From assembly GCA_029262815.1 (NCBI GenBank), contig JAJCYS010000038.1, forward strand, positions 15,182-79,181: a DNA stretch of 64,000 nucleotides, read 5' to 3'. The position numbers and the translations under genes are program-made. Positions 12,348 to 62,120 of this stretch are shown here, piece after piece. This stretch comes from Deltaproteobacteria bacterium (GTDB lineage: Bacteria; Bdellovibrionota; JAJCYS01). Each line of letters begins with the position of its first letter. Position 1 is the stretch's first letter. The notes beneath the pieces were generated by a model. It was not told where the DNA came from. It worked only from the letters and a program-made list of their open reading frames with translations, and searched no databases.

Positions 12348-12383
12348 TGCCAAAAGGGTGACGGGGAACCTAAGTGTGGCTAG
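12348..12383. repeat. family A repeat, single copy (TGCCAAAAGGGTGACGGGGAACCTAAGTGTGGCTAG)
   Basis: Matches the 10182-10335 units; overlaps the stop codon of CDS 12380-13267. Confidence 0.7.
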
Positions 12384-28341: not shown

Positions 28342-28347
28342 AAGAGC

Positions 28348-29486: not shown

Positions 29487-29537
29487 TGCCAAAAGGGTGC
29501 CGGGGAACCTTAGTGCTTTGGGGAACCTAAGTGCTTT
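29487..29537. repeat. family A repeat, 1.5 units (TGCCAAAAGGGTGCCGGGGAACCTTAGTGCTTTGGGGAACCTAAGTGCTTT)
   Basis: Same GGGGAACCTAAG core as the 10182-10335 array; here upstream of the plus-strand CDS 29605-31929. Confidence 0.7.
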
Positions 29538-29604
29538 CCCACCTACTTCCAAACAGCAATTCCTGATATACTACTCACAAGAAATTAGATTCGAGGGGGA
29601 AAGA

Positions 29605-37386: not shown

Positions 37387-37665
37387 TTATTCAGGCCATT
37401 CTACGAGAAGTTCATTCTCAGCTAGATAACCCGTTTGCAATCGAATGACCCGCTCTCGATACCGTCTATCATGCTTGAAGATTTGGATGGTGTGCTGAAG
37501 TGCCTCAAGCTCTTGCTTAAGCAACACCAGCTCCTGATCAAATTTTTTCTTCTTTTGATACAAAGTCCAAAGTGTCTGCACACCCTTTGATTCAAAATAA
37601 GAAATAGTCCCTACAGCTGAGACCACGATTCCCACACACACACTATGTATTAAAAAACGTCTCAC
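37387..37665 (-). CDS. FtsB/DivIC-like small coiled-coil membrane protein
   Basis: 92 aa; N-terminal TM, central coiled coil, C-terminal RERVIRLQTGYLAENELLV resembling the FtsB C-terminal block. Confidence 0.5.
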   Translation of the reverse strand: MRRFLIHSVCVGIVVSAVGTISYFESKGVQTLWTLYQKKKKFDQELVLLKQELEALQHTIQIFKHDRRYRERVIRLQTGYLAENELLVEWPE

Positions 37666-38078
37666 CGCTTAGATGTTCGCTCCGTTGCAATACTAAATTT
37701 CGTTACCTTATTGCGTTGTAATATATCAAAAATCTTGACCACTATACCATGGGGGGTGGCTTTGTCCGCTTCGATTAATAATTGCTTCTCAGTCAAGCTC
37801 GGCATATTTTTGATCGTTGTTTCTAGCTCTTGAGCGGTAATCGGTTTTGATCGCCAATAAATTTGGCTTTTTTCATCAATCGAAATCACCAACGGCACAC
37901 TTTCCCCCGTTCCTTTTTGCATACTGGTCTTCGGCAGATCAATCTGGAGCGGGTTATGTTTGATGAATGTAGTAGACACCATAAAAAAGATTAACAATAA
38001 AAACACCACATCAATGAGCGGTGTCAAATCAATCGAAGGCACCTCTTCAGAAACCGATTGTTCATCAAATTTGATCAT
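37662..38078 (-). CDS. ExbD/TolR-family protein
   Basis: IDLTPLIDVVFLLLIFFMV canonical ExbD/TolR motif; 138 aa. Confidence 0.8.
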   Translation of the reverse strand: MIKFDEQSVSEEVPSIDLTPLIDVVFLLLIFFMVSTTFIKHNPLQIDLPKTSMQKGTGESVPLVISIDEKSQIYWRSKPITAQELETTIKNMPSLTEKQLLIEADKATPHGIVVKIFDILQRNKVTKFSIATERTSKR

Positions 38079-38700
38079 GTCGCTTCTCTAAGAACAGGGT
38101 TTCGTACACGTTATCTAACTCTGATTCAATCGCGGTCATAATCGTCAAAGATCGATTTCGAATCACTTTATGAGCCACAAATGTTGGAATCGCAACCAAC
38201 AATCCAGCGATCGTAGTCAACAAAGCTTCAGATATCCCCCCCGCTAAGTGGCTTGCATTTCCTAACCCATGGGTATTAATCGTCTGAAAGACATGCATCA
38301 TCCCAAGCACCGTACCCAACAACCCCAAAAGAGGTGCAATACTGGCAACCGTCGAAAGCATATCCACACCACGCATCAATTGCTTTTGGACCATCGTCAT
38401 CGGCCCACGCATCCTTTCAGCGGTTTCTTTGGATCCGTGTGATTGATACTCCAACATTTTTAACACGAGATAACTCACCGGACGGTTCGAATGTTTAAGA
38501 CGCCCGATCACTTCATTTGCCTGATCAGAACCTAAATGCTTCAACTCATTAAGCAACGACTTAGGCAAATGATACCCATTTCGTAAATACACCAAACGTT
38601 CCAAAAAAACGGCCAGTGAAACCACAGAAATTAACAAAATAACCCCAAGGACAGGCCCGCCTTGTTCGAATAACGCTACCCAATCAATTGTCATAATCAA
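38065..38700 (-). CDS. MotA/TolQ/ExbB-family proton channel
   Basis: 211 aa; IAPLLGLLGTVLGM block. Confidence 0.8.
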   Translation of the reverse strand: MIMTIDWVALFEQGGPVLGVILLISVVSLAVFLERLVYLRNGYHLPKSLLNELKHLGSDQANEVIGRLKHSNRPVSYLVLKMLEYQSHGSKETAERMRGPMTMVQKQLMRGVDMLSTVASIAPLLGLLGTVLGMMHVFQTINTHGLGNASHLAGGISEALLTTIAGLLVAIPTFVAHKVIRNRSLTIMTAIESELDNVYETLFLEKRHDQI

Positions 38701-44838: not shown

Positions 44839-45354
44839 TTAAATATCTGAAGCCTGATGAACACGGCCTGAAAATTGCGCCAATATGGGATTCATGATAC
44901 ACACATATAACATCACATTGACGCCACTGAGCACAACCCAACGCCACTGCAAAATGTAAGCTGACCCATCAGTTAAATAGAAAGACATCTTTATGATCCG
45001 GAGTCCTAAAAACAAACCAAAGCAACATAGTACTGCAGCTATTCGGATCTTTTTTTGATCTGGAGCCACATGTGCCCGAAATAATATCCCCAACACACCG
45101 ATGGTTAAAAATGGAAACAGCAACCCCCAAAAACCATGCACACTCGTAAAACTGACCCACAGGATCATCCCAAGCATTGACATAAAACTTTGCCAGTATG
45201 GCCGGACTAAAAGCAGATACGTCACCCAAAAAACCCATATATAACTCACAACACCGACCGATAATCCATCAAAGTAAGCAGACAGTTGAAAGCCCATACC
45301 ATCTATTAAATAGCAGCCTATGCCGACCAACATGTCACAGACCCAAATACTCAT
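44839..45354 (-). CDS. mreD: rod shape-determining protein MreD
   Basis: 171 aa polytopic membrane protein in the canonical slot between mreC and mrdA. Confidence 0.65.
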   Translation of the reverse strand: MSIWVCDMLVGIGCYLIDGMGFQLSAYFDGLSVGVVSYIWVFWVTYLLLVRPYWQSFMSMLGMILWVSFTSVHGFWGLLFPFLTIGVLGILFRAHVAPDQKKIRIAAVLCCFGLFLGLRIIKMSFYLTDGSAYILQWRWVVLSGVNVMLYVCIMNPILAQFSGRVHQASDI

Positions 45355-46175
45355 TTTCCCCTTTGGCCCAAAATAATAAAAACCTCTTGGGCTTTTTGAG
45401 CATCAACAAAAGGCATTATCCATACCGCTTGCTCTAGTTTTTGGCGAGTGGGTTCGATACGCGTGACTTTGCCCACCCCGATACCGTGGGGAAACACTTT
45501 GCCAAGCCCAGAGGTGATATAAATATCCCCAATGTGCACATCCGAATCACGATGCACATATCGGAGTAACTGAAGTGGCCCCTGACTTTCTCCCGTTAAG
45601 ACAGCACGCTCATCAGTACGGAGGTTCACCACGTGGGCTCGAAATAAGGGGTCTTGTAATGCCAAAACTAGGCTTCTATGGCGACCTGCCGCAACAACTT
45701 GCCCTACGATACCTTTGTGATCAATCACAGGTACCGCATTTTGCACCCCGTGCGCAGTACCGGCGTTAACCCAGAGGGCCTTGCGGTCAGCGGAATGATC
45801 GAGTGCCACTACTTCAGCAATCTTAAGCTTGAATGGAAGTTTGGGCTGCAATCCAAGAATGCCACGAAGTCGAGCGACTTCTTGTTCGAGTGTCAACAGC
45901 TTGATTCGCTCTGCATCAGAGGCCTGGAGCTCAGTTTTGAGTCTTTTGTTTTCTAGTTGCAACGCCTCAATACGCAGAAAACGTTCATAGAAGGCGTATA
46001 CGGTATCCGTAGATGACCTCATAAAATGGAATACCGGCTCACAGAATATCTGATACAATTGTGAGGAAGCGGTCGACCGTAGGTCTGGCAGCTTCACAAA
46101 TACAGTAAAAAACGTTATGAATAAGGCTATGATGAGCCAGGCGTATTTTTTTATAATATGTGAACCTTTTAACAT
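45351..46175 (-). CDS. mreC: rod shape-determining protein MreC
   Basis: N-terminal TM, coiled-coil segment, C-terminal VITSGLGKVFPHGIGVGKV block; 274 aa. Confidence 0.75.
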   Translation of the reverse strand: MLKGSHIIKKYAWLIIALFITFFTVFVKLPDLRSTASSQLYQIFCEPVFHFMRSSTDTVYAFYERFLRIEALQLENKRLKTELQASDAERIKLLTLEQEVARLRGILGLQPKLPFKLKIAEVVALDHSADRKALWVNAGTAHGVQNAVPVIDHKGIVGQVVAAGRHRSLVLALQDPLFRAHVVNLRTDERAVLTGESQGPLQLLRYVHRDSDVHIGDIYITSGLGKVFPHGIGVGKVTRIEPTRQKLEQAVWIMPFVDAQKAQEVFIILGQRGK

Positions 46176-47767
46176 GGTTACTCCAAGGAGCTTTTATGCT
46201 TGCTTATTTTAGAGGTCAGCGTAACCCGATTCTACTATATTTTGTTGTGGGTGTGATTTGTATTGTCATGTTGTCGTTTGGATTGGTTGCCAAACAATAC
46301 AGCCCTAAACCATCTTGGGTGCTCAAAGTGAATGGGAAAAAAGTCCCCCTCACGAGATACCTTGCCTCTTATCATCAAATCATAGGCTATTTTCAGAGCC
46401 TACTGAAAGGGCAATTCGACCCCAGTATGCTCCAGTATTTTCAAGTGTATAGCACAGTCCTTGAAAACTTAAAAGAACGTGAGCTGTTAGATTACTTCGC
46501 TCAGAACCAACATTTGGTCTTTAGCACCGAGTTTGTGCGAGATCAGATTCTCAAAGAAGAGGGATTCAAAGACGACGGTCAGTTTTCATTCGACCAATAT
46601 AAGCGAGTGTTAGCCCGAGGTCTCCCCTTCAGCCCTATCAAGCCCAAAGATTATGAGGATTATTTGGGGCAGATCTATGTTGTTCAAACTTTGAATCGTG
46701 TCATTCGAAATGCGTTTCATTTACCAAAAGAGCATCAAGATATTCTAGAGAAATTACGTCAAATTGAGTATAAGGTCACCCTATACCCACTAACACCTAA
46801 ACACATTCAAGCCAAAACGAAGCTCAAAAAAGAAGAAATTGCAGCTTTTGCGTCTGATACAAAAAATTTGCCTGCTATTCAAAATGCATATTTCAAACAA
46901 TCGGCCAAATATTCTCAAAAAGGGACCTACGAAGCCAAACATATTCTGCTGCCAAATGTCACAGAAGAAGAAAAGAAGACATCAAAAGATCTGGCTGATC
47001 AACTGTATACCCAACTTGTGACGGATCCTGGACAGTTTGAAGCATTGGTCAAAAAACATTCCGTCGATCCAAGCAGTAAAGACAAAGGCGGTCGTTTGGG
47101 CAAATTAACTTCTGGCGAGATCAAAGAAGAGCTTGAGGCAGCCCTAAAAACGTTAAAACCTGGTGAAGTGGGCAAACCGATCGTGACAAATCTAGGGATC
47201 CATATTCCTGTGTTAATTGCTTCCACACCTGAGGCAACTACACCGCTGGAAAAAGTAAAAAGCGAGCTTGCTGAGCAAGTGCTTATGGATCAAAAAAGAG
47301 GTGAATTGGTTGAAATTTATCAACCCATTCTGATTTCTCATTTTAAGAATCGAGATATCAAAGAAGTCAAACGTATATTAACCACGACATTGCGAATTAA
47401 ACCTGAGGAAACAGGTTTTTTTAGCCCGTATCAAAGTTTGATCCAACCAGTGGGGCAGGCCTTTCCGTTGAAACAGTATGTGCTCCACAACGAGCTTGAA
47501 GCGGGGGATTTTGTCGAAGAAATTATTAAACTGGGCGGTACCCCCTATGTCATTCAGATCAAAGCCAAGAAAGAAGCATTTGAGGCAACCACTAAGACAA
47601 AAGGCGCCAAAGAACAGTTTTTGACTCAAATGAATTTAAAATGGCAGGATCATGTCTATGCCAAGTTCAAGAAAAGCCTGGAGCAGCGGTATCCCATTAT
47701 TGTGAATCAAGAGGCTATCGCAGCATTTAAAAAACGTCATAGCAGAACTGAACAAGCTGCACAATAA
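46160..47767 (+). CDS. membrane-anchored peptidyl-prolyl isomerase (PpiD/SurA-like, parvulin domain)
   Basis: N-terminal TM; parvulin-type block AKHILLPNV...GGRLGKLTSGEI...; 535 aa. Confidence 0.7.
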   Translation: MNLLTWLLQGAFMLAYFRGQRNPILLYFVVGVICIVMLSFGLVAKQYSPKPSWVLKVNGKKVPLTRYLASYHQIIGYFQSLLKGQFDPSMLQYFQVYSTVLENLKERELLDYFAQNQHLVFSTEFVRDQILKEEGFKDDGQFSFDQYKRVLARGLPFSPIKPKDYEDYLGQIYVVQTLNRVIRNAFHLPKEHQDILEKLRQIEYKVTLYPLTPKHIQAKTKLKKEEIAAFASDTKNLPAIQNAYFKQSAKYSQKGTYEAKHILLPNVTEEEKKTSKDLADQLYTQLVTDPGQFEALVKKHSVDPSSKDKGGRLGKLTSGEIKEELEAALKTLKPGEVGKPIVTNLGIHIPVLIASTPEATTPLEKVKSELAEQVLMDQKRGELVEIYQPILISHFKNRDIKEVKRILTTTLRIKPEETGFFSPYQSLIQPVGQAFPLKQYVLHNELEAGDFVEEIIKLGGTPYVIQIKAKKEAFEATTKTKGAKEQFLTQMNLKWQDHVYAKFKKSLEQRYPIIVNQEAIAAFKKRHSRTEQAAQ

Positions 47768-47799
47768 AGTCTCGAAAAACCATACCCAAAAAGGGTTTC

Positions 47800-47844
47800 A
47801 GAGCACAGTCTTTTTTTCTTTACAAAGAAAAAAGGCTGTGCTCT
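47800..47844. terminator. bidirectional terminator-like hairpin (stem AGAGCACAG / CTGTGCTCT, long A/T loop)
   Basis: Perfect 9-bp stem flanking an A/T-rich palindromic loop, between convergent-free genes 46160-47767 and 47928-48431. Confidence 0.35.
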
Positions 47845-47927
47845 AGTACAACCTAATTTGAACAAACCCAGTTTTGTGTCACATATGTGGGTTTCGTCAA
47901 TTTTTATTAATTTAAGAGGAGGAAACT

Positions 47928-48431
47928 ATGAATTTAAAAGTTTTATCAGTCGCGTTGGTCGCAAGTTTTTTGGTTGTTACAGCGTGCAGCAGCAGCAAAT
48001 CACCTAAGGGCAAAAGTGATGCCGCAAGTGTTTCTATGTCAATTTCAGCAAAAAACAATAAATTCGAATTGAATGTTGATAAATTTAAGATTGAAGCTTT
48101 GAAGGAAGTCAAAAATACAGATGCTATGAAAGCGCTTAAAGATCTAAACGGTAGCTTCTCTATCGCACGTAAGGCAGAGAATGACATCACAAGTGGCAAA
48201 TGGGTTCATACGGATGGTGACAAAGTACATTCAATTGCATTCACCAACGAAAACAATGTCTGGACATTCGCTAATGAAATCACTGGCGTCAAAGCGGACC
48301 ATGCGATGGCTATCTGGGCAAAACAAAAATCTACCATTACAGCTACAAAAGATGGCGGATTCACCATGTCTTTGACTTTGGCTGACAAAGACACTAAAAA
48401 CGTAACCGTTTCTGTACCGTTTAAGAAGTAA
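47928..48431 (+). CDS. lipoprotein, unknown function
   Basis: RBS AGAGGAGGAAACT before ATG; MNLKVLSVALVASFLVVTACSSS lipobox. Confidence 0.6.
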   Translation: MNLKVLSVALVASFLVVTACSSSKSPKGKSDAASVSMSISAKNNKFELNVDKFKIEALKEVKNTDAMKALKDLNGSFSIARKAENDITSGKWVHTDGDKVHSIAFTNENNVWTFANEITGVKADHAMAIWAKQKSTITATKDGGFTMSLTLADKDTKNVTVSVPFKK

Positions 48432-48462
48432 GTACTAACCTACCCAACTGTAGGTCAAAAAA

Positions 48463-48497
48463 ACCTGGCGTCATTTAATTGGCGTCAGGTTTTTTTA
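48463..48497 (+). terminator. intrinsic terminator (stem with G-U wobbles, T7 tract)
   Basis: ACCTGGCGTCA ... TGGCGTCAGGT followed by TTTTTTT; A-tract upstream. Confidence 0.5.
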
Positions 48498-48605
48498 TTT
48501 GCTCCTCCACAGTGTTCTTTATTGACCTACGGCCTCCACCCTGCTTGGTTTAAATATGGTATTATGGTACTGTGGGAGCTGATTTTAGAGCCGGAGGGTA
48601 GTCAT

Positions 48606-49238
48606 ATGCGTCGGGGAATTCTTTTTTTTACACTTATAGCTGCATGTTTTGCAGGATGCAAATCGGATGTTGAAAAACGCCAAAAGTTGGATGAGTTCAT
48701 GCTCTCCATCACATCAAAAGCTTATATCTTCAAAGGACTGACTGTAACCAAGACTGTTAAGTCAAAAGAAGTGAGAACAGATGGCAAAACCTGGCTGGCA
48801 TATTTTACAGACAAGGTCTTTCCGAACGTTCCAGATGATGTGGAAAGAGATCTTAGGCTGATACTTGATAACAAAGACAAATTCGTAGGATCAGAGTTCA
48901 AACTAGGTGCCGCTGCGTGGCGATATACTCGAAACTCAGAAAAATTCCCTCTCGAAAAAAATGGCATGATTGAGTGGAAACGTGCTGATGGGGGGAGCTT
49001 ATTTAGACCTGATTATTTACAAAACGAAACATATTTTTCATTTTTTGGCCCTTTCGGTACAGGGACAGTTGCCAAAGACGCTGAGTTAGAGGACTACGAA
49101 AAGCCTCTTATTCGTTTTTTTCAAAAAAAGAAACTAGAAGTCACTGCTGAGGACAACAAGCAAGAAAAACTCAAGCTTAATTATTACATAGAAGGCATTG
49201 TTGCTTTCTCTCTCAGCTTTGAGCAAAAGAAAGAGTAA
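48606..49238 (+). CDS. lipoprotein, unknown function
   Basis: Start at ATG 48606 (MRRGILFFTLIAACFAGC) with GGAGGG upstream; the ORF-track start at 48522 is an extension. Confidence 0.6.
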   Translation: MRRGILFFTLIAACFAGCKSDVEKRQKLDEFMLSITSKAYIFKGLTVTKTVKSKEVRTDGKTWLAYFTDKVFPNVPDDVERDLRLILDNKDKFVGSEFKLGAAAWRYTRNSEKFPLEKNGMIEWKRADGGSLFRPDYLQNETYFSFFGPFGTGTVAKDAELEDYEKPLIRFFQKKKLEVTAEDNKQEKLKLNYYIEGIVAFSLSFEQKKE

Positions 49239-49265
49239 ACCATCATCAGAAGAGGAGGACATCTC

Positions 49266-50132
49266 ATGAGATATAGCCGATTTTATTGCCTTCTGGCATG
49301 TTGCATGGTGCTTACAAGCTGCACACGTAACAACACCGAACCGACTGCGAAGTTCTTATCTGTCCTATTTACCTCACATGCGGCACTGCTAAATGCAACC
49401 AAAACGCCAAGCGCTGAGAATGATAAAAATTTAAAATTTTTTAGAATGACACATGGTCGATATTTTGGGAATGAGATGGAAACATTCGCAAAATTTGATG
49501 CTATCTACAAAGGGGAACTTTATTGGCTGTTCAGTCAGGGACCTGATCGTGAAACATACATTTGGATGGTGTACAAACTGCCTGAAGGCATGCCCTCAAC
49601 TCTACAGACAAAAAAAGATGAAAAAGATAAGAAGAAGGATGAAAAAGATAAGGAAAAAGAGGTTGATCCCAAAAAACCACTTGTCGGCTGCTCGCAATTT
49701 ATGATGTCGATTGAAACGACATACGAAGGCGGATTGGCCTATGCCTATGATACTGAGTTGCCCACTATTAGCATGGGGCCTTGGATACAAATGGATTATT
49801 CCGGGGAAAAGCTGGCTATCAAAAAGTTAAGCACAAAATACATTAATTCGTTCTTTACGCTTATCCAGCATGAGAGTGGAAGCATCAAAGCACGTTGGCA
49901 GAGTGACAGCTCTATAGCAAGAATCAAAATATCCCGCGTTAGACCCGTAGAGCCCTATGCCTATGTTGATTTAGTTCCAGCTGAACCAACTGCATACATT
50001 AAGGATGCGCTAAGGAAGAATGTTAGATACACGTTTTTGAAACACACGATAAAAAAATCAATTAAAAAGAAAGATGAGAAGGAAGACACTGAAAAAGATA
50101 AAAAAGACAACAAGGAAACCAAAGAGGATTAG
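49266..50132 (+). CDS. lipoprotein with Lys/Asp/Glu low-complexity segments
   Basis: MRYSRFYCLLACCMVLTSC lipobox; KKDEKDKKKDEKDKEKE internal and KKKDEKEDTEKDKKDNKETKED C-terminal tracts. Confidence 0.6.
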   Translation: MRYSRFYCLLACCMVLTSCTRNNTEPTAKFLSVLFTSHAALLNATKTPSAENDKNLKFFRMTHGRYFGNEMETFAKFDAIYKGELYWLFSQGPDRETYIWMVYKLPEGMPSTLQTKKDEKDKKKDEKDKEKEVDPKKPLVGCSQFMMSIETTYEGGLAYAYDTELPTISMGPWIQMDYSGEKLAIKKLSTKYINSFFTLIQHESGSIKARWQSDSSIARIKISRVRPVEPYAYVDLVPAEPTAYIKDALRKNVRYTFLKHTIKKSIKKKDEKEDTEKDKKDNKETKED

Positions 50133-50135
50133 ACC

Positions 50136-50702
50136 ATGAAATTTCTGATCACTGCCTGTGTGTACAGCATCTTCATCTTTGGAAGTATCGGCTGTAAATC
50201 CAAAAATCCTGCGGATTTAAAACGAACAATCGAAAGTGGGCGTCAATTCTATGAATTGGTGGGCGTCAGCAGTCTTGATTCTGGGTATAAAGATTTACGC
50301 AAAGAAGTCAGTTTCTGGCACTTTGGCCCTAAACGGTTGACAATTCTTTTGAACAAAGCGACACAAGAAGCCACAAAACCAGCAACAGTTGAACGACCTG
50401 ATGGGCTTTTTTATGGGCCGCTCAGTGCATTCAAAAAAATCAAGACTTCTGATCGATTGCTAGCGGGGTCAGACAGATTGAAGGGCAGAACATTAAGACT
50501 CAAAGAGTGGCCCCAGCAAATGAAGGCTTTTATCATGCGTCAGCAAGCAGATGGTAGCCTAAAAAAAGACGTTGAGCTGACATTCAAAAAAGTGGATTTA
50601 CCGAGTGCGAAATTTTCTGTGATTTGGCCGGATCATCTGAAGGCTCCGGAGCCTTTGAAGCCCAAAGAACAAAAGCTGCAACCCATCTCCTCCAAAAAGT
50701 AG
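50136..50702 (+). CDS. lipoprotein, unknown function
   Basis: MKFLITACVYSIFIFGSIGC lipobox; 188 aa. Confidence 0.6.
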   Translation: MKFLITACVYSIFIFGSIGCKSKNPADLKRTIESGRQFYELVGVSSLDSGYKDLRKEVSFWHFGPKRLTILLNKATQEATKPATVERPDGLFYGPLSAFKKIKTSDRLLAGSDRLKGRTLRLKEWPQQMKAFIMRQQADGSLKKDVELTFKKVDLPSAKFSVIWPDHLKAPEPLKPKEQKLQPISSKK

Positions 50703-50731
50703 ACGGATCGCAGCTTTTTGAGTTCAAACTA

Positions 50732-52078
50732 TTATTTTTTCCTCCAATCTTTCCATTTGTTTTTCCAATAGTCTTTGGTCTGCTCCAGCGCACCTTTTTC
50801 TTGTTCTTTAACTTTTGGTTTTAACCCATACTGACGATTAACCTCATTTAAAGTTTTGTTATATTCTGCATTTAACTCATTGATCTCCAGCTGAAAATCC
50901 TGCTTATCTTCAAGAGTAAGGGCGGGTTTCACGTCTTTCTTTTGTCTCTGATTAAATTCGTTCACTTTTTCAAGATATGCTTTTTGTTGTTTTTTACTCT
51001 TTTCTTCAAGTTTAGCAAACGCTTCATCACCTATGTACTTATCACTTTGACTGCTACTTTTGTCATCTTCTTCGGCACTCTTCTCTTGCGAGTTACCATC
51101 CTGTGATTTGCTAGAGTCGTCTTGTTGTTTAGTTTCGCCCTCTTGGGAATTGCCATCATCATTTGATTGGTTGTCGTCTTCTTTAGTTTCTTCAGATTTA
51201 CTATCATCAACTTGTTTTACAGTCTTTTGAACAGGCCCTTTAACAATCGGCTTCCCTTTGCTTAGCAGCTGACCTTTTTTATTAATGGTTACGTCATTTA
51301 TATCCACCGCTTGAAATCCAACTTCCATCGTAAACTGCACGGTTACCGTGCTCGCTTCAGTTACTTTTGCAGCTGCTCGAATAAACCCTTCATTTTTAGT
51401 TGGTGTAAATATAAGTTCAGGCACACGGGGACAAATCTGAGTAAATGAGCATTTCAATGTTACATCTAAATTTTCTTCGTAAGGTTTCCGAACGATGAGC
51501 TCCTCTTTCGCATTTTCCATATCCAAGTGAGTCGGCAATGGACGAATCGGTCCACTCCAAATCAACCCATTAATGGTATCGCCATTTTTGATCTCATATG
51601 GTGAGACCCAAGGATTTTTTGCATCTCGTTTTTCTGCAATAAAATCAACAAACGTACCTTTCTCTTGCTCAGTATCCCAATAAAACATCCGTATTTTGAA
51701 AGCCCCTAGTCCTTCTTTAGGAAAAAAGTACACAAATTTACCGTTCAATGTCGTCTCAGGCTTGCCCTTATACTGGAATGGTTCTCCTAGGAATGACTTA
51801 ACACCCTTATCGACCGCTGCCTGTGCCCTCGTTTTAATAAACGCATAATGATCACTAACCACAGTCCCTTTTAGCTCCTCAGGTAGAGGTACAAACCATT
51901 TATCTGTGTTCTTTTGAGTTAATTCCTCTTTGGTGACCTTTACAACATCTTCTTTCTTCAGCACCTGCATCAGCTTTTTATTAAACTCTTCTTCCTTGAG
52001 AGGAACGCCGCAGCCAACAAACACCAAAATACATACAATTGCAATAAAAAATTCTTGTTTTTTCATATATTTCAACAT
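50732..52078 (-). CDS. lipoprotein with acidic low-complexity linker, unknown function
   Basis: Start at 52078 (MLKYMKKQEFFIAIVCILVFVGC) preceded by AAAGAGGTG; acidic Ser/Asp/Gln-rich linker then Lys-rich coiled-coil-like tail. Confidence 0.6.
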   Translation of the reverse strand: MLKYMKKQEFFIAIVCILVFVGCGVPLKEEEFNKKLMQVLKKEDVVKVTKEELTQKNTDKWFVPLPEELKGTVVSDHYAFIKTRAQAAVDKGVKSFLGEPFQYKGKPETTLNGKFVYFFPKEGLGAFKIRMFYWDTEQEKGTFVDFIAEKRDAKNPWVSPYEIKNGDTINGLIWSGPIRPLPTHLDMENAKEELIVRKPYEENLDVTLKCSFTQICPRVPELIFTPTKNEGFIRAAAKVTEASTVTVQFTMEVGFQAVDINDVTINKKGQLLSKGKPIVKGPVQKTVKQVDDSKSEETKEDDNQSNDDGNSQEGETKQQDDSSKSQDGNSQEKSAEEDDKSSSQSDKYIGDEAFAKLEEKSKKQQKAYLEKVNEFNQRQKKDVKPALTLEDKQDFQLEINELNAEYNKTLNEVNRQYGLKPKVKEQEKGALEQTKDYWKNKWKDWRKK

Positions 52079-52294
52079 GTTACACCTCTTTAGGTTGCGA
52101 AAACTTCTTTTCAGTTGACCATAAAAAATAAGTTTAAGCAATTTAAAAAACACTAATCGTTTTATCGGTTATTTAGCTAATAGTTTTAACAGTTTATGCA
52201 TCTATTTAATATTTAATGAATTTATATACTTACACTAAATATTTTATTTATAAATGTCGATCAGACGGTGAGGTTTCATGAAGGAGGGGGGAAG

Positions 52295-53023
52295 ATGAGC
52301 TATTTCAACAACCGTTTGGTGGTGTGTGCGTTTTTGGGCGCGGGGCTGCTGATATTGCCTGCCCAAAGCAATGCGTTCCAACCTAATGACGCTGGCCTTG
52401 CAACACCCGACAACTTTGATCAGATGCCGATTCAGTACCACAACGGCTCACAAGCAAGCCCCTATGACGCTCCTCAAGGTTATGACATGCCCCAACGAGA
52501 TCTCCCTGCAGCTCCTGAGATTCCGCGACAGCCCGCTCAATTCCCGACTGCGCCTAACTTGAACGCCCCCCAAGATATTCAACAGGGCTATGATGCTCCG
52601 CCGCAGTACAACAGCTACCCACAGAATCAAAACCCGTACCCTGATGTTCAACGAGATCCCAACAGTGATTATATGGATAAACAGCCCCCCCCTAATATGC
52701 AACAAGGATATGACTCACTGCCTCAAAGTAACAGCTACCCTCAAACTCAAAACCCCTATCCAGATGTTCAACGAGACCCTGAATCACTCAATGATTCTGA
52801 TCCGTTTGATCAAAATCAATATGACCAAAACCCTCAAGATTATCCTTCTGAATTCATTGATTCAGGAGAACCAGACGCAAATCTACCTCAGGCGGATCGA
52901 CTACCTCTGCAAACACCTTTTGAGCCCCCACAGATTGATGATTTCTCACCTGAGCAAGAGTTACAAAATCCACAACCCTATCCTGAATTTGACCAACAAC
53001 AGCTGGATGACATTCGACAGTAA
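52295..53023 (+). CDS. secreted Pro/Gln/Tyr/Asp-rich repeat protein
   Basis: Start at ATG 52295 after GAAGGAGGGGGG; signal peptide ...LPAQSNA; internal direct repeat QQGYDxxPQxNSYPQxQNPYPDVQRDP occurs twice. Confidence 0.6.
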   Translation: MSYFNNRLVVCAFLGAGLLILPAQSNAFQPNDAGLATPDNFDQMPIQYHNGSQASPYDAPQGYDMPQRDLPAAPEIPRQPAQFPTAPNLNAPQDIQQGYDAPPQYNSYPQNQNPYPDVQRDPNSDYMDKQPPPNMQQGYDSLPQSNSYPQTQNPYPDVQRDPESLNDSDPFDQNQYDQNPQDYPSEFIDSGEPDANLPQADRLPLQTPFEPPQIDDFSPEQELQNPQPYPEFDQQQLDDIRQ

Positions 53024-53179
53024 GATAGATTGCTTCGGATAGTACGCCTGCGACGACAGATGGATCCCTGCCTCCGTGTATAGTCCCGAAAGATTGCAAG
53101 TATAGAAAGGAAGTGATAAGAGGGATAGAGTACAGCAACGGCCTGACACCGCCATCTCTACCAAAATATCGAATCGTCT

Positions 53180-55636
53180 CTATTTAAATAATTTGGATAA
53201 AATGTCTCGCACATTGTTGAAAAACAACAGCTTCAACCCCGACTTGCTACCCTTCTCAAGTTGATCCACATCTGCTTTGTTCTCTTTGGGCAAAAATACA
53301 GTTTTAAGTCCTTCACGTCTGGCTGCCAACAACTTCTCTTTGATACCACCCACTGGCAACAAATCACCAGATAAAGAAATCTCACCCGTCATGGCCAATT
53401 TAGGGGGCATCACCTGGCCCGTTGCCAACGATATCAACACAGACAAAAGCACTACGCCTGCAGATGGCCCATCTTTTGGGATGGCACCCGCTGGCACATG
53501 AATGTGTAACTCATGCTCTCTAAAAAAATCTGAAGACGCCCCATAAAAATGGGCGTATTTCATCGCAAAGGTATGAGCAAGATGGGCACTCTCATTCATC
53601 ACATCACCAATTTGGCCCGTGATCGTATACCCACCTTTTTTTGCAGTAGACGGCATCGCTACACATTCGATAGTGAGGATGTCACCTCCTACTGGCGTCC
53701 AAGCCAAACCATAGGCCATACCAGGGCGCTTGAAGGTCCGAATCTTCTGTTCACGGTACACACTGGGACCTAAAATCTTGGCGATTGCACCTTTTTGCCA
53801 CTTTACTTTTTCAGCTTGTTTTTCGGCTACCAAATAAAAAGCTTGCTTACGCATCAACGTCGCCAAACATTGATCCAAATAACGAACCCCTGCTTCACGC
53901 GCATAGTCTGAAATTAAAAACTTCATCATTGAGTCAGGCATACGAAAATCTTTTTGCTTCAACCCATGTTTTTTTAAAAGTTTCGGTACTAAATGCTTTT
54001 TAGCAATAAACAATTTCTCAGCTTCGTTATACCCATGAACCTCTATCACTTCCATCCGATCAACCAACGGTTCTGGAATTTCTTCCAAAACGTTCGCAGT
54101 AACAATGAACAACACCTTGCTCAAATCAAAAGGCACATCAATATAATGGTCTAAAAATGAATGATTCTGCTCCGGATCAAACACTTCAAGCAACGCAGCT
54201 GCCGGATCTCCTTGGTAGCTTATCCCCAACTTATCAATCTCATCCATCAGGATCACAGGGTTCTGACTGCCGACTCGTTTCATCGCTTCGATAATCTTAC
54301 CCGGCATGGCACCCACATATGTCCGACGGTGACCTTTAATTTCAGCCTCATCTCGCATTCCACCGAGAGAAAACCGAAAAAATTTACGGCCCATCGCCTT
54401 TGCAATACTTTCACCTAAGCTGGTTTTGCCACATCCAGGCGGGCCAACCAAGCACAATACACTACCAGCATATTGTGGATTCAATTTTCGTACTGCCAGG
54501 AACTCTAAAATTCGCTCTTTGATTTTTTGTAACCCGTAGTGCGTTTTATTCAGCTCACGCGTTGCGGCCTTGATATCACTGCATTCTTCAGTAGTCTCAC
54601 CCCAGGGTAAAAACAAAATATATTCCAAATAATTTCGGAGTACTTGATATTCCGGAGACATATCACTCATGTGCTCCAACTTGTCAATATGCTCCTCGAT
54701 CTGATCTAAAGGCTCTTTAGGCAAAGTTAACTCATCAAGCCGCACGCGATATCGCTCAATCGCTTTTGACTGCTCGTCTTGCTTCATCCCAAGTTCTTGC
54801 TGAATCTGGCGCAACTGTTCCTTGAGAAAAAATTCACGTTGCACTTTTGTGATCTTATCGTTCACTTCACTTTGGATTTTCTTCTGCAACTCTAGCAACT
54901 CGTATTCTCGCTTTAATTCAACAAGCACCATACTGAGTCGCTTTTTCACATTCGAAATAGAAAGGTATTTATTAATCTTCGACAACGTCATTGGAATGGT
55001 ATACGCCACCAAATCCGCTAGTTCACCAGGATGATGGGTGTTTACCATAGCAAGACGCATTTCATCAGAGAAGAGCGGCTGCGTTTGAGCCAGTTCCTTC
55101 ACCTGATAAATCAACGCTCGCATCAAAGCTTCGGTTTCTTGATCGCGAAGCAGTTTGTCTTCCAGATATTGAACCGATGCAAAAATGTGTTGACCACTTT
55201 CTAATACTTCTTGAATTCGAAATCGTTTGAGCCCCTGCACCAAAACATGGCTGCCCTCATCAGGTAGATTGACCTTTTTGAGAACCTTTACAGCCACACC
55301 ATATCTGAATACCTGGCGCTCACCGAGGGTCTGTTTATCTTCATGCCCTTCCCGGGGCACAATCAAACCCACAATGCCATGGTCCACCATCAGTTTATTC
55401 AGCATCACAAGATGATGCTTTTCGATGATAAAAAGGGGTGCCATCAAACCCGGATAAACCATCCGAGAACGAATCGGCATACAATACAGCTCATTAGGCA
55501 GCTCTACGTCACGGCCGCCGTTAGGCACCTTCAGCACAGCCTGGCCAAAATCCTTTAGAAAACTGGGATCTCCAGATCCGTTTTTTTCTTCAGCTACCAA
55601 TACAGAATCTATACTATCGTTAAAATAATCACTCAA
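53180..55636 (-). CDS. lon: ATP-dependent Lon protease
   Basis: GPPGCGKTS Walker A, KDGPSAG catalytic-Ser region; 818 aa. Confidence 0.9.
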   Translation of the reverse strand: MSDYFNDSIDSVLVAEEKNGSGDPSFLKDFGQAVLKVPNGGRDVELPNELYCMPIRSRMVYPGLMAPLFIIEKHHLVMLNKLMVDHGIVGLIVPREGHEDKQTLGERQVFRYGVAVKVLKKVNLPDEGSHVLVQGLKRFRIQEVLESGQHIFASVQYLEDKLLRDQETEALMRALIYQVKELAQTQPLFSDEMRLAMVNTHHPGELADLVAYTIPMTLSKINKYLSISNVKKRLSMVLVELKREYELLELQKKIQSEVNDKITKVQREFFLKEQLRQIQQELGMKQDEQSKAIERYRVRLDELTLPKEPLDQIEEHIDKLEHMSDMSPEYQVLRNYLEYILFLPWGETTEECSDIKAATRELNKTHYGLQKIKERILEFLAVRKLNPQYAGSVLCLVGPPGCGKTSLGESIAKAMGRKFFRFSLGGMRDEAEIKGHRRTYVGAMPGKIIEAMKRVGSQNPVILMDEIDKLGISYQGDPAAALLEVFDPEQNHSFLDHYIDVPFDLSKVLFIVTANVLEEIPEPLVDRMEVIEVHGYNEAEKLFIAKKHLVPKLLKKHGLKQKDFRMPDSMMKFLISDYAREAGVRYLDQCLATLMRKQAFYLVAEKQAEKVKWQKGAIAKILGPSVYREQKIRTFKRPGMAYGLAWTPVGGDILTIECVAMPSTAKKGGYTITGQIGDVMNESAHLAHTFAMKYAHFYGASSDFFREHELHIHVPAGAIPKDGPSAGVVLLSVLISLATGQVMPPKLAMTGEISLSGDLLPVGGIKEKLLAARREGLKTVFLPKENKADVDQLEKGSKSGLKLLFFNNVRDILSKLFK

Positions 55637-55654
55637 TGGGCTTTACCTTCCGAT

Positions 55655-57802
55655 CTATAACATATGCAACACTTCGCGCTCTTTTGCAAATGTAAAACGC
55701 TCAGCATAAGAAAAACGCTCAGAAAAGGTGTGTAAACGGTCCTCAACATAGGTCACCCCGAGAGATTTAGCATAGGCCATGATCCCTCCCTTATATGGCG
55801 GGAACCCTGCACCGAAGACCATCCCAACGTCAATCCACTCTGGCCCAGATACCACTTTCTCGTTGACCAGGCGACACCCTTCCGCAAGCATAGGTAATAT
55901 CAAACGATCTTTAATATCCTCATCCGTCACAGACACAGGCGCCTGCCCACGTGCCACATGTTTGGCAATGGATTGGCAATAAGACTCGTCTAAAGAGGGT
56001 TTCTTGCTGTCATAGGTATAAAACCCTTTTTGTGTCTTTCGCCCTAACCGGCCTGCCTGGATCATTTGATCCAACCCAGCTGGTACAGCATATCGATCCC
56101 CATGTTGTTCAAACAAAATTCGTGCCACATGGTTTCCGATGTCTATGCCGATCTCATCTAGTAACCTCAATGGCCCCATCGGCAATCCAAAATTCTTAGC
56201 AAGTTTTTCCATTCTCGCCGGAGCCACACCATCAGCCAAGAGTTGGACCCCTTCATTGAGATACATCCCCAGCATACGGTTCACCACAAATCCGGATGTA
56301 TCCTGACACACCAAGGGGAATTTGCCCAACTTGACCACAAATTGGCACAGACGATCAATGATCTCTGGATCAGTCTGTTTACCCTGAATGACCTCCACAA
56401 GAGGCATTCGAAGTACGGGGTTGAAAAAATGTAATCCTGCAAACCGCTCAGGATGCTTCAACTTCGCACCCACTTCTGACAATGGGAGTGAACTCGTATT
56501 GGTTACCAAAATACAATCTTTTGAAATAACCGACTCAAGCTCAGAAAAAACTTTATGCTTAACATCCAAATCCTCAAACACAGCTTCAATCACACAATCT
56601 AGCCCGTCAAATCCGTACGGATCGGTCTGTAGCCGAAGGTTGCGCTGGACATCAGCCGCCCACCGAGACCAAACTTTTCGTGAGGATTTATGGGCCGATT
56701 TTAATGATTTTTGAACAACATCTAAATTTAAATCTCGACATCGCGTAAAAATACCGGATTTTGCAGCGCTCAAAGCGATGCCAACGCCCATTACACCCCC
56801 TCCAATGACGCCTAGGGTAGCCAATGGGGGTTGGGAGGTTTTCACTCTGCCAATTTTTTTTGACGATTCAGAGAGATTAAAGACCCGAATTAAATTCTTT
56901 GATGTCTCTGTAATAGCAGTTTTAGCAAACGCACGATTCTCTATTTCAAATGCTTTACTTTCAGGTAGAAAATATGTTTGACGCACAACTTCACATACAG
57001 CAGAAAGCGCCGGATAATTTTTACGCATCGGTTCAATTGATTTACGAACCATATAAACCACGAGCGGCGTAAACGCCAGTTTAAACCCCGATACTGCAGT
57101 GCGCTTCTGACCATGTTTCCGAATCATTTGGGCACACACATCTGGCCCTGGCACAACATGCTCATCCACCAATACGTCGACCATATTCAGACGTTTTGCA
57201 GCACGGGGAGTTAATGCCTTACCCTTTAGAATAAGCTCTAGGGCAGATTTTGGCCCAATACGTCTAGGTAATAATACTGTTCCCCCGAAGCCAGGAATAA
57301 TACCCAATTTCGTCTCCGGTAAACCAACCTTGTATTTGGGGTTTTTGTTCATCGCTATGACGTCACAAAACAAAGCAAGCTCGTAACCACCACCCAAGCA
57401 TGTGCCATTCAACCAAGCAATGGTCTTGGCTTTTAAGGCTTTAAACCGTCCAAACACAGCTTTTCCAGCTTCTGCTTTTTTGATGGCATCTTCTTCCTGA
57501 GTAATGGACTCAATCATTGAAATATCAGCGCCCGCTAAAAAGATACCTGGTTTTGCACTTCGAAATACAAGCACCTCAGCCTCTTCAGCTAACGTTGTAT
57601 TCAGAAACGCGCCTAATTCTTGCATGAATTCGAACGTTAAAATATTTGCAGATCGACCGTGGGTATGAAACTGAAGTTCACAGTAATTACCCCCACTTGG
57701 AAGCACACCCGTAACCACCGTAAAGTTTTGATACGGTTCTCCTAAAGAAGTCTGATCTTGATTTTTTGAATTATGCGACTGATTGAATCCAGAGAGCTCC
57801 AC
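55655..57802 (-). CDS. fatty-acid oxidation complex alpha subunit (enoyl-CoA hydratase / 3-hydroxyacyl-CoA dehydrogenase, FadJ/FadB-like)
   Basis: N-terminal crotonase-fold domain then NAD-binding GVIGGGVMGVGIA; 715 aa; downstream of the thiolase gene (fadIJ-like order). Confidence 0.85.
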   Translation of the reverse strand: MELSGFNQSHNSKNQDQTSLGEPYQNFTVVTGVLPSGGNYCELQFHTHGRSANILTFEFMQELGAFLNTTLAEEAEVLVFRSAKPGIFLAGADISMIESITQEEDAIKKAEAGKAVFGRFKALKAKTIAWLNGTCLGGGYELALFCDVIAMNKNPKYKVGLPETKLGIIPGFGGTVLLPRRIGPKSALELILKGKALTPRAAKRLNMVDVLVDEHVVPGPDVCAQMIRKHGQKRTAVSGFKLAFTPLVVYMVRKSIEPMRKNYPALSAVCEVVRQTYFLPESKAFEIENRAFAKTAITETSKNLIRVFNLSESSKKIGRVKTSQPPLATLGVIGGGVMGVGIALSAAKSGIFTRCRDLNLDVVQKSLKSAHKSSRKVWSRWAADVQRNLRLQTDPYGFDGLDCVIEAVFEDLDVKHKVFSELESVISKDCILVTNTSSLPLSEVGAKLKHPERFAGLHFFNPVLRMPLVEVIQGKQTDPEIIDRLCQFVVKLGKFPLVCQDTSGFVVNRMLGMYLNEGVQLLADGVAPARMEKLAKNFGLPMGPLRLLDEIGIDIGNHVARILFEQHGDRYAVPAGLDQMIQAGRLGRKTQKGFYTYDSKKPSLDESYCQSIAKHVARGQAPVSVTDEDIKDRLILPMLAEGCRLVNEKVVSGPEWIDVGMVFGAGFPPYKGGIMAYAKSLGVTYVEDRLHTFSERFSYAERFTFAKEREVLHML

Positions 57803-59603: not shown

Positions 59604-59607
59604 TAAA

Positions 59608-59721
59608 GTTGCGCTGTACTACTCTCCCACAGGGCTACCCCTGCAGTACCATCGTCGCTGAGGAGCTTAACTGCCGAGTTCGGAATGGGATCGGGTGTTT
59701 CCTCCTTGCTATCAGGACAAC
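59608..59721 (-). rRNA. rrf: 5S ribosomal RNA (solitary)
   Basis: Minus-strand sequence ...CCGAUCCCAUUCCGAACUCGGCAGUUAAGCUCCUCAGCGACGAUGGUACUGCAGGGGUAGCCCUGUGGGAGAGUAGUACAGCGCAAC aligns block-for-block with bacterial 5S (CCGAACUC, GUUAAGC, CGAUGGUACUG, GGGAGAGUAG). Ends are +/-5 nt. Confidence 0.85.
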
Positions 59722-59726
59722 GAAAT

Positions 59727-59756
59727 CAAGGTATCAAGCGACCCCTCTCAAGTCAA
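59727..59756 (-). promoter_or_regulatory. candidate sigma70-type promoter for the 5S gene (TTGACT -35, weak TACCTT -10)
   Basis: On minus strand: AAAAGCTTGACTTGAGAGGGGTCGCTTGATACCTTGATTTCG then the 5S 5' end; spacing and -10 are imperfect. Confidence 0.3.
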
Positions 59757-59834
59757 GCTTTTGTTTGTTATACTAGGGTTGCACGATTAACACGTTCTCT
59801 ATCTGGCACGTGCGTGTTTCGAACGGGATGTTCT

Positions 59835-62120
59835 ATGACTGAAAAAGCCCAACGATGGGTATTTATCTTGTTTCTACTTATCGGGTCCTTATGGGTGGGT
59901 CCCCGGTGGATTCCCGCAGAGTGGCTCAAAGAAACCCTCGAGTCCTGGGTCACCACACATATGGGATTTACCCTCCAAACGGACAGTGTGGCTCTGTCGT
60001 TATTTCCGACCACCCAGCTCGTATGCAAAGACGTCACATTTTCTGGCGCCCCCCTTCCGTTCTCGCTCCAGACTACTGGCACCATCTCGCGGATGATACT
60101 GAAGTTTTCTATGATTAAAACGGCTTTGACCGGCCGACCCTTTGTCAACGTCCTGCTTGACGGTGCTCAGCTTGAAATTACGCCACATGAGCCACCCAAA
60201 GACCCCCTTCCCTACGTTGTCTTATCTTCACTCTTTATTAGGTCGAGTGACGCAGTCCTAACCCTAAAAAAAAACCGTATCCCCACAACCCTACATTCAT
60301 TTCAAATTGTTTTTGAGCCTAAGCGTAAAACGGCAACCTTACAAGGTGATATAACCCTACCCGAGTTTGCGCCAAAACCTGGATCACGTTTATCCACACA
60401 GATGACTTTGAACGGTTCAGTTGAGGCCCTCGAAGACGGCTCTCTATACATCCCACAGCTCAGGTTCCGAGCCAAAAATTTTAGCTACGTTTCTCTCGCC
60501 TACCAAATCAAACAAGGTCGAGGCCCTTTCTTTATGACCGCTTCGGGACTCTCTCTCTCTCGAGAAGGGTCTGGCACGGTAAAATCCCTTTTTCTCGGAC
60601 TCAATGACCACACCTTACAACTCACTGGACAATTTCAGACAACGCCTTTTCGTTTTATCGGACGGCTAGCCCCTTTTGAAACAACATTCAAAGACTTCCC
60701 TTTCGAATTGCTTCAAGATACGTTCCCAGGTGCTTCGGGAATAATCACCTTAAACAACCCGATAGGGCTGTCCTACACACACAGTCCCAAATCCGAATTG
60801 CAAATGGATCTTAAGGGGATCGCATTAAAAAATCTGTCTTGGCCCACACCTTGGTTCCTGCTTGAAGAGCCCGAGGCACGCCTATCTGGAAAACTATTTT
60901 TTCATCCCAAAGCAGGAATTCAACCATCGCGAATTGAATGGCGTAACGGTAAACTTGAGCTTGCACACAGTACATTGCTTATGGAAATCTCTACAGAGCC
61001 TGATGTAAACCGCACAGAAATTACACTTCAGCCTTTTGAACTTGATCTTTCACAAATTCCTCAGATCTTTGAAACGTTTCTTGGGTTCAAACACACGAGC
61101 GGCTTACTCACCAGTGCCACACCGTTGACCATTTCTAAAACAGAAAATACAACCGCGTTAGCAGGTCGATTACGAATCGATGAGGGCATAGGCACATGGC
61201 AAAAACAATGGCAGGTAGCAGGACTCACAGCTGATATGGTATTGGGGACACCAAAATCAGATCTCACTTTATCCATAAACAGCCTGACTCAAAAAAATGG
61301 GTGGCAACTCAAAAACCTTACTTTGCAAGGCAACCTGGCTCAAACAGGCGTATGGGAACTCAATCGATTCGCCACACAATTTAAAGACGGTACAGTTGTT
61401 CTAAAGGGCGGTGTGTTTGATCCAATTGCACATACGTTTACAGCAAAGTCTTTAAAAGGTTTTTTTGATCTTACAAAGTCTCGCGTACTCAATCATGTTG
61501 CTCCAAAAGCAAATTTAAGTTTAACGGGCAATCTTCGTTTTCAGATTAACCGCATGGGCATCCCGCTCACCCCGACGACACATCAGCCCAAATGGCATAA
61601 AATGGTCGGAGCATTTGAAAGTGAAATTGCGAATTTTTCCTGGCGTGACTTTGATATGCAAACCCCTTTTACAGAGCTGCTCGAATCATATTATGATCAG
61701 CTGCGAACTCGACGGGTTCGATCGCGTACCCTCGCAACTGAAACCATTCCCACATTAGAAACAACGTACAAAGGTACCATGAAGGGACAATTTTCCTCTC
61801 AGAATGTGATTGTCTCAGAGAGTACATTTTTCAATGCCACTAGTACATTCACCTTAAAAGGGAAAACAACAAAACTACCCGTGCCCCTTCAAAAAACACG
61901 TATAGATTTAAATGGCACGTACATCATCCACAAACCGGGATTTGCGGACCCTGTTATTCAAGAAATTCTACTAGATCCGAATCGGAACCTTCGCATTCCT
62001 GTTCAAATCCAAGGCACCCTTGGTAGACCTGATGCCTATTTTTTAAAAGCTGAAGCGTACCGAACTTTTGATCGACGTATTCAATCGCACCACATAGCCA
62101 AACCAACTAAGGGGCAATAA
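59835..62120 (+). CDS. AsmA-family protein (membrane-anchored, beta-rich envelope protein)
   Basis: Start at ATG 59835 (MTEKAQRWVFILFLLIGSLWV, single N-terminal TM); about 760 aa, repetitive beta-strand-like composition. The ORF-track start at 59685 overlaps the 5S gene. Confidence 0.6.
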   Translation: MTEKAQRWVFILFLLIGSLWVGPRWIPAEWLKETLESWVTTHMGFTLQTDSVALSLFPTTQLVCKDVTFSGAPLPFSLQTTGTISRMILKFSMIKTALTGRPFVNVLLDGAQLEITPHEPPKDPLPYVVLSSLFIRSSDAVLTLKKNRIPTTLHSFQIVFEPKRKTATLQGDITLPEFAPKPGSRLSTQMTLNGSVEALEDGSLYIPQLRFRAKNFSYVSLAYQIKQGRGPFFMTASGLSLSREGSGTVKSLFLGLNDHTLQLTGQFQTTPFRFIGRLAPFETTFKDFPFELLQDTFPGASGIITLNNPIGLSYTHSPKSELQMDLKGIALKNLSWPTPWFLLEEPEARLSGKLFFHPKAGIQPSRIEWRNGKLELAHSTLLMEISTEPDVNRTEITLQPFELDLSQIPQIFETFLGFKHTSGLLTSATPLTISKTENTTALAGRLRIDEGIGTWQKQWQVAGLTADMVLGTPKSDLTLSINSLTQKNGWQLKNLTLQGNLAQTGVWELNRFATQFKDGTVVLKGGVFDPIAHTFTAKSLKGFFDLTKSRVLNHVAPKANLSLTGNLRFQINRMGIPLTPTTHQPKWHKMVGAFESEIANFSWRDFDMQTPFTELLESYYDQLRTRRVRSRTLATETIPTLETTYKGTMKGQFSSQNVIVSESTFFNATSTFTLKGKTTKLPVPLQKTRIDLNGTYIIHKPGFADPVIQEILLDPNRNLRIPVQIQGTLGRPDAYFLKAEAYRTFDRRIQSHHIAKPTKGQ

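Follow-up and report, generated by a model that had tools for sequence, protein, structure and literature searches.

Five adjacent open reading frames (ORFs), here called Lp1 to Lp5, occupy positions 47928-52078 of a 64,000-nucleotide stretch of contig JAJCYS010000038.1 from a Deltaproteobacteria bacterium (assembly GCA_029262815.1), and the question they raise is whether a run of lipoprotein genes without known family reached this genome from elsewhere or belongs to it. The whole stretch is referred to below as the window, and all coordinates are counted from its first nucleotide. A preliminary description of the locus had proposed an accessory envelope module of four consecutive plus-strand lipoprotein genes and one convergent lipoprotein gene, possibly acquired horizontally. 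Our analysis makes it reasonably probable that Lp1 to Lp5 are all genuine genes, native to this genome, and encode lineage-restricted bacterial lipoproteins. Their orphan status would then reflect a deep, almost unsampled lineage and rapidly diverging envelope proteins, and not recent import.

The starts of all five genes are preceded, at a distance of 5-9 nt, by a GGAGG-type Shine-Dalgarno (SD) sequence, and a public protein collection holds called proteins identical to Lp1 to Lp5, starts included. Longer ORFs for Lp2 (opening at a TTG, 48522) and Lp5 (opening at a GTG and reaching 52153) were rejected as genes; an SD, GGAGGG in the case of Lp2, precedes the 48606 and 52078 starts. Lp2 and Lp4 otherwise recur only on short Logan contigs, 100% identical and all from run SRR15505518. 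The proteins Lp1 to Lp4 are basic (net charge +5 to +17), and the highest basic charge noted is that of Lp4 (+17). It could be argued that some or all of these ORFs are spurious products of chance in an AT-leaning stretch, since four of the five lack a homologue anywhere searched and structure prediction gave no confident fold. However, their lengths (167-448 codons), the well-placed SD, signal peptide and lipobox on each, window-typical codon usage, tight, operon-like spacing and the concurrence of depositor and Logan gene calls leave that idea with almost no credence, and Lp1 to Lp5 are genuine genes. The starts of Lp1 to Lp4 are in frame with one another, at offsets of 678, 1338 and 2208 nt, each divisible by 3. 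Coincidence is the probable cause; since stops and a terminator intervene, read-through is not implied.

At the N-terminus, each of the five proteins carries a short basic segment, a hydrophobic stretch and a Cys at residue 18-23 after A, G or S. Candidate signals were scored with a lipobox test of the form [LVI..][ASTVI..][GAS]-C, with the Cys at position 15-35, an uncharged hydrophobic region and K or R in the n-region. Lp1, Lp3, Lp4 and Lp5 passed a strict, PROSITE-like version of the rule, while the Cys at -4 and the Phe at -3 caused Lp2 to fail it; under a relaxed rule 5/5 passed, and Lp2, which did so only there, is probably a lipoprotein to judge from its N-terminal sequence. Nine of the 57 window ORFs were lipoprotein-like by the relaxed rule, and for the run of five adjacent ones a permutation test gave p 0.0016, so that they are truly clustered, in a window that is rich in lipoproteins overall. 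The arrangement of four plus-strand genes and one convergent gene given in the preliminary description was thus upheld, with exact coordinates, SD sequences, signal peptides and lipobox Cys residues, the last atypical in Lp2.

In their basic n-region, hydrophobic h-region and [AGS]-Cys at 18-23 the proteins resemble generic bacterial lipoproteins (PROSITE PS51257-type substrates of Lgt, LspA and Lnt), and an Lnt gene lies within the window. They share with many outer-membrane lipoproteins the Ser/Lys-rich tethers that follow the Cys (bioRxiv 10.1101/2021.01.05.425367). They differ from generic lipoproteins in that their mature domains match no described family, that the Lp2 lipobox is atypical and that their lipidation is predicted. 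By the established lipoprotein pathway, from which we infer both lipidation and localisation, Sec export would come first; Lgt would then diacylglycerylate the Cys, LspA would cut the signal and Lnt would acylate the new N-terminus. The gene for apolipoprotein N-acyltransferase (Lnt) lies at 34468-36024 (+; LNT_N, E 2e-11; CN_hydrolase, E 7e-13) and the 64-kb window contains neither Lgt nor LspA; the Lnt gene fits a diderm with triacylated lipoproteins, and shows the organism to have at least that step of the pathway. At +2, Lp1 to Lp5 have S, K, T, K and G, respectively. Since the residue is never Asp, the E. coli +2 rule would make the proteins cargo of Lol, to be anchored in the outer membrane on its periplasmic or surface side, and by this analogy the outer membrane is probably where they reside.

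The earlier statement that these genes cannot be assigned a function agrees with our searches: for none of the five did a match reach threshold in Pfam, NCBIfam, PADLOC, PHROGs or the PDB sequences, and Rfam returned nothing real in the cluster region. Two candidate assignments of Lp1 were rejected, namely Pfam DUF7926 (14.5 bits, E 0.04, against a gathering threshold of 33.5 bits) and PADLOC Cas8g (16.7 bits, E 7.5e-4 before correction for six queries). The latter had no CRISPR-Cas context, as no window ORF scanned with Pfam was recognisable as a cas gene and no repeat array was present in the region scanned (45000-56000). Matches to lipo_EMYY, DUF1310, WhiA and some PHROGs were likewise discarded, being sub-threshold or limited to the signal peptide. 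By BLAST, phmmer and hhalign, Lp1 to Lp5 are unrelated to one another and to every other window ORF.

A single relative emerged when 1.84 billion representatives were searched exhaustively with phmmer, the mature Lp1 to Lp4 and the Lp5 N-domain being joined into one query (995 aa, at a cost of ~3 bits in sensitivity). The output consisted of the five Lp proteins themselves and one other, P0007, a secreted protein of 268 aa encoded on a 10.5-kb NCBI contig, which matches Lp5 at residues about 91-230 (E 2.8e-20) and is 38% identical to it across some 140 positions. Apart from the Lp5 N-domain, no part of the cluster yielded a homologue. Conserved between the two are the motifs GKxVYxFP, FKxR, NPW and WxGPIRP and a Cys pair, CxxxQIC-PRxPxLIF. 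P0007 too has a signal peptide, but lacks a canonical lipobox, the acidic linker and the helical tail of Lp5. A two-sequence profile of Lp5 and P0007 found nothing further in a 5.8-billion-protein index, Joint Genome Institute (JGI) metagenomes or viral contigs, and a word-index protein search with Lp5 gave the self-match only. At HMMER sensitivity, Lp1 to Lp4 are thus orphans and Lp5 is one of a two-member family.

Orphan status, together with the non-random run of lipoprotein genes, could also be expected of an acquired accessory envelope island, that is, of five genes that arrived jointly from another organism or a mobile element. The cluster is like a genomic island in being compact, in consisting of non-conserved genes, in its slightly lower guanine-plus-cytosine (GC) content (0.40, compared with 0.44 for the window) and in having an AT-rich spacer at one edge; its dinucleotide-signature distance is about 2 standard deviations (sd) over the mean, and the z score of Lp5 for GC at third codon positions (GC3) is -2.3. 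However, the conserved neighbour ppiD, at 0.41, is equally GC-poor. Codon tests were conditioned on amino-acid composition, with the other window genes as reference. Results showed z scores for synonymous-codon log-likelihood of 0.09, -2.02, -2.67, -0.28 and 0.08 for Lp1 to Lp5 (window sd 1.72) and GC3 z scores of -0.70, -1.00, 0.16, 1.26 and -2.32 (window sd 1.45). Since all of these values lie within the window's own spread, the cluster does not have the distinct composition of a genomic island. GC at codon positions 1/2/3 was 0.465/0.342/0.387 in the cluster against 0.526/0.388/0.423, no position differing by more than about 1.2 sd of the spread among genes, and a drop over all three positions, seen also in ppiD, fits Lys-rich proteins. 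The foreign composition that horizontal acquisition had implied was thus not borne out.

The usual companions of mobile DNA were absent as well, in which the cluster again differs from genomic islands. The window holds no tRNA gene, no direct or inverted repeats flanking the cluster were found, and no integrase or transposase was recognisable among the 48 ORFs scanned against Pfam and the nine inspected by sequence (17 ORFs being without Pfam match). Neither plasmids, phages nor viral contigs yielded a match to the cluster proteins, and the databases searched, comprising 15 billion proteins, offered no possible donor. Moreover, the genes are divided among three separate transcription units. 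Recent transfer is not supported, and we consider joint arrival of the five genes improbable.

The genome as a whole offers a setting in which native orphans would not be out of place. The Lon protein encoded downstream of the cluster is distant from its relatives: its best identity is about 44% over the full length, with partial matches reaching 51%, and full-length matches of 38-44% come from many phyla, in a scan of species-representative genomes and metagenomes that finds only proteins sharing exact 8-mers and is not exhaustive. The contigs of these Lon relatives showed no shared synteny and no tblastn match to Lp1 to Lp5. Six window proteins found in a public collection, Lon included, are all singletons at 90% identity, and the organism has been seen in one sequencing run. 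No Pfam match (E <= 0.001) was obtained for 17/57 window ORFs, among them those at 29497-31929 (810 aa) and 59685-62120 (811 aa); the scan took in 48/57 ORFs, the other nine being counted as conserved housekeeping genes by sequence inspection. By these sequence comparisons the genome looks phylogenetically isolated and itself an outlier. Given its outlier status, with a distant Lon and 17/57 ORFs lacking a Pfam match, orphan genes are to be expected here. The run of six orphans formed by Lp1 to Lp5 and the adjoining P/Q-rich gene (Table 1) had a permutation p of 0.014, and we regard the cluster as a local concentration of orphans, not a foreign body.

With regard to expression, the layout of the cluster indicates three transcription units. 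Lp1 stands by itself, with a hairpin on either side; the second unit is Lp2-Lp3-Lp4, and the convergent Lp5 is the third. The region 47768-47870, which contains the hairpin between ppiD and Lp1, folds with -32.1 kcal/mol (z -6.05), and 0/200 shuffles fold as well; no U-run follows this hairpin on the plus strand. The hairpin after Lp1 has the form of a classic intrinsic terminator, and its A7 and U7 flanks make bidirectional action possible. Gaps of 27 nt (Lp2/Lp3) and 3 nt (Lp3/Lp4), together with an Lp4 SD that lies within the end of Lp3, indicate that Lp2-Lp3-Lp4 is probably one operon, and the Lp4 start 3 nt past the Lp3 stop, with its SD inside Lp3, makes translational coupling of the two likely. 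Lp2, Lp3 and Lp4 would probably function jointly, because they would be co-transcribed and Lp3/Lp4 apparently translationally coupled. Where Lp4 and Lp5 converge, the 29 nt that separate them contain no hairpin exceeding chance. The cluster had been described as bounded by terminators; there is indeed a strong hairpin upstream (47799-47845), but the terminator at 48457-48496 is internal and none is found at the Lp4/Lp5 junction. The very AT-rich character attributed to 52154-52294 was confirmed (27.7% GC), and with 24.3% at 52079-52267 these are the window's lowest intergenic values. This spacer is presumed to be a divergent region with the promoters of both Lp5 and the P/Q-rich gene. As for an accessory envelope module, the proteins are envelope lipoproteins by prediction, yet a module is only weakly supported, the genes being spread over three transcription units and without mutual sequence similarity.

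The placement next to ppiD bears on the possibility that the five proteins are lineage-specific accessory factors of envelope biogenesis, tied to ppiD and mreC-mreD-pbp2-rodA as, for example, analogues of LpoA or LpoB. The cluster follows ppiD directly, and the elongasome genes are 1.8 kb away from it. Lpo-type regulators, which are outer-membrane lipoproteins acting on peptidoglycan synthases, also have long disordered linkers, and the charged tracts described below would be similar in this respect. However, ppiD and Lp1 have a strong hairpin between them, as do Lp1 and Lp2, and no sequence or profile similarity to known envelope-biogenesis lipoproteins was detected. We therefore hold such a role to be quite doubtful.

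The preliminary description also attributed low-complexity charged tails to several of the proteins, and this was true in part. Charged tracts are real in Lp3 and Lp5, whereas Lp4 shows no more than a weak, P/K-rich tail at its C-terminus and Lp1 and Lp2 have no low-complexity tract beyond the usual Ser/Lys-rich tether after the Cys; the second tract of Lp3 is the only true C-terminal tail. The internal tract of Lp3 includes an imperfect 21-nt tandem duplication that encodes KKDEKDK twice (family D2, 49611-49631 and 49632-49652; 90% identical), and a third copy related to the unit occurs in the tail (50091-50111). The acidic linker of Lp5 has no tandem repeat at the DNA level, and beyond it three long helices are predicted with low confidence (model residues 596-693 of a concatenated query; predicted local distance difference test, pLDDT, about 50). 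The charged tracts would most likely be flexible spacers. Those of Lp3 would stem from short in-frame duplication of the 21-nt unit, and that of Lp5 would join the conserved, probably disulphide-bonded globular domain to the helical K/E/Q-rich tail. Disordered N-terminal linkers are often carried by outer-membrane lipoproteins (bioRxiv 10.1101/2021.01.05.425367).

Such tracts could also be expected if the cluster encoded rapidly evolving surface lipoproteins for interaction with a host, prey or phage, with homology erased by fast divergence. In favour of this are the orphan status of the proteins even under exhaustive search, the charged repetitive tracts produced by local duplication, the lipoprotein-rich window (9/57 ORFs) and the eukaryote-like features of the window (a Ser/Thr kinase, a HEAT-repeat lipoprotein and a protein-tyrosine-phosphatase-like lipoprotein), which hint at a host-associated lifestyle. 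They would then act as functional analogues of the surface lipoproteins that vary in Mycoplasma (Vlp and Vsa proteins, whose C-terminal regions are charged and repetitive) and in spirochaetes. The Lp cluster is like the Vlp/Vsa systems in its lipoprotein anchors, charged low-complexity regions and clustered, lineage-restricted genes. It is unlike them in that the Lp proteins form no paralogue family and have no paralogues within the window, in that the 21-nt unit occurs in 2+1 copies and not in long tandem arrays, and in that the Lp upstream regions inspected show no phase-variation features and no homopolymeric or invertible elements. Furthermore, surface exposure is assumed, and the Lp5 domain keeps 38% identity with its sole homologue and hence is not hypervariable. 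We consider fast-evolving surface lipoproteins unlikely, while noting that this idea is compatible with native, lineage-restricted genes.

Several points weigh against native lipoprotein genes as the explanation for the cluster. The dinucleotide-signature distance is raised (0.074 versus 0.040 +/- 0.016), the most deviant dinucleotide windows also covering the conserved ppiD, and, with the slightly lower GC, this may leave room for an old or ameliorated transfer. The atypical lipobox of Lp2 is a second point, since cleavage by signal peptidase I could be an alternative for that protein. The +2 sorting rule derives from E. coli and is not universal. Finally, fold prediction failed for all five proteins: AlphaFold2, run on two concatenated single-sequence queries that together covered them, returned mean pLDDT values of 32.6 and 35.5, which are unusable, and Foldseek comparison of both low-confidence models with the PDB gave no match at E <= 1e-3, with root-mean-square deviations of 15-20 A, and was not used.

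Coordinates of the cluster, its parts and its neighbours are collected in Table 1.

Table 1. Layout of the lipoprotein cluster and of neighbouring or comparable features in the window.
Feature	Position	Strand	Description
Cluster	47928-52078		From ATG of Lp1 (47928) to ATG of Lp5 (52078, minus strand)
Lp1	47928-48431	+	167 aa; SD AAGAGGAGG at 47914-47922; monocistronic; signal peptide MNLKVLSVALVASFLVVTA/C20; lipobox VTA/C20; Ser/Lys-rich tether after Cys
Lp2	48606-49238	+	210 aa; SD GGAGGG; first gene of the Lp2-Lp3-Lp4 unit; signal peptide MRRGILFFTLIAACFAG/C18; lipobox FAG/C18, atypical
Lp3	49266-50132	+	288 aa; SD GAGGAGG; lipobox LTS/C19
Lp3 internal K/D/E tract	49611-49676	+	Residues 116-137
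Lp3 C-terminal K/D/E tail	50049-50129	+	Residues 262-288; sole true C-terminal tail among the charged tracts
Lp4	50136-50702	+	188 aa; SD located inside Lp3; lipobox SIG/C20
Lp5	50732-52078	-	448 aa; SD AAAGAGGTG; convergent with Lp4; lipobox FVG/C23
Lp5 N-terminal globular domain	51209-51808	-	About residues 91-290; predicted
Lp5 acidic S/D/Q/E/N-rich linker	51041-51217	-	About residues 288-346
Lp5 K/E/Q-rich C-terminus	50735-51040	-	Residues 347-448; three long helices predicted
Long palindromic hairpin	47799-47845		Between ppiD and Lp1; upstream cluster boundary
Classic intrinsic terminator	48457-48496		After Lp1; 17-bp stem, A7 and U7 flanks; -30.4 kcal/mol, z -7.0; inverted repeat I2
AT-rich divergent intergenic region	52079-52294		Between Lp5 and the P/Q-rich gene
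mreC	45351-46175	-	Upstream of the cluster
ppiD (PpiD/SurA-like prolyl isomerase)	46160-47767	+	Directly upstream of the cluster
P/Q/D-rich secreted protein	52295-53023	+	Sixth adjacent orphan; GGAGG, then ATG at 52295; signal-peptidase-I type signal, not a lipoprotein
Lon	53180-55636	-	Downstream of the P/Q-rich gene
Second cluster, first ORF	9418-10125	-	235 aa; LSG/C; near-threshold matches to dual-specificity and to myotubularin-like protein phosphatase domains
Second cluster, second ORF	10336-12198	-	620 aa; SSG/C; HEAT repeats
Second cluster, third ORF	12380-13267	-	295 aa; no family

The P/Q/D-rich protein encoded beyond the spacer has no family match and contains a 40-aa internal tandem repeat (D1 at the DNA level; 94 nt, 77% identical). 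It is acidic, with a net charge of -27 as computed for the longer, 251-aa ORF from 52268. Elsewhere in the window there is a second lipoprotein-like cluster, of three minus-strand genes (9418-13267). Its genes have a GC content of 0.34-0.39 and GC3 z scores of -2.0, -2.2 and -3.8, and are more deviant than those at 47928-52078; this stronger deviation makes it the better candidate for foreign or effector-like genes. Further loci, at 4903-6321 (-), 27709-29422 (+) and 37387-38700 (-), encode a Ser/Thr protein kinase of eukaryote type and two ExbB/ExbD-type clusters that lie apart from each other, which are consistent with a diderm possibly interacting with hosts or prey. A full-length, solitary 5S rRNA gene was found at 59606-59722 (-; 95.7 bits). 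Since Rfam gave no large-subunit (LSU) rRNA match at any position of the window, and the 4 kb beside the 5S gene had no blastn match to E. coli genomes, this 5S gene is unlinked from any 23S gene within the window.

A more far-reaching proposal takes in the whole interval between ppiD and lon: the six consecutive secreted or envelope proteins, Lp1 to Lp5 and the P/Q-rich protein, would be de novo or hyper-diverged inventions of a deep, almost unsampled lineage that jointly form a lineage-specific surface or periplasmic structure, with the Lp5 N-domain founding a new two-member family of disulphide-bonded secreted domains. We offer it as speculation and think it unlikely.

What the locus adds is five family-less protein sequences (six with the neighbour) and one secreted domain with two members; of modest value, too, is a lipoprotein-rich genome of seemingly isolated phylogenetic position. 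As families the proteins are new, yet they are of a well-known kind, namely lipoproteins, so that the finding is real and fairly ordinary, and the locus at 47928-52078 makes no long-standing question testable. If these are indeed native, lineage-restricted genes, runs of family-less envelope proteins would be normal in poorly sampled lineages, and GC alone would be no ground for inferring horizontal transfer in such lineages.

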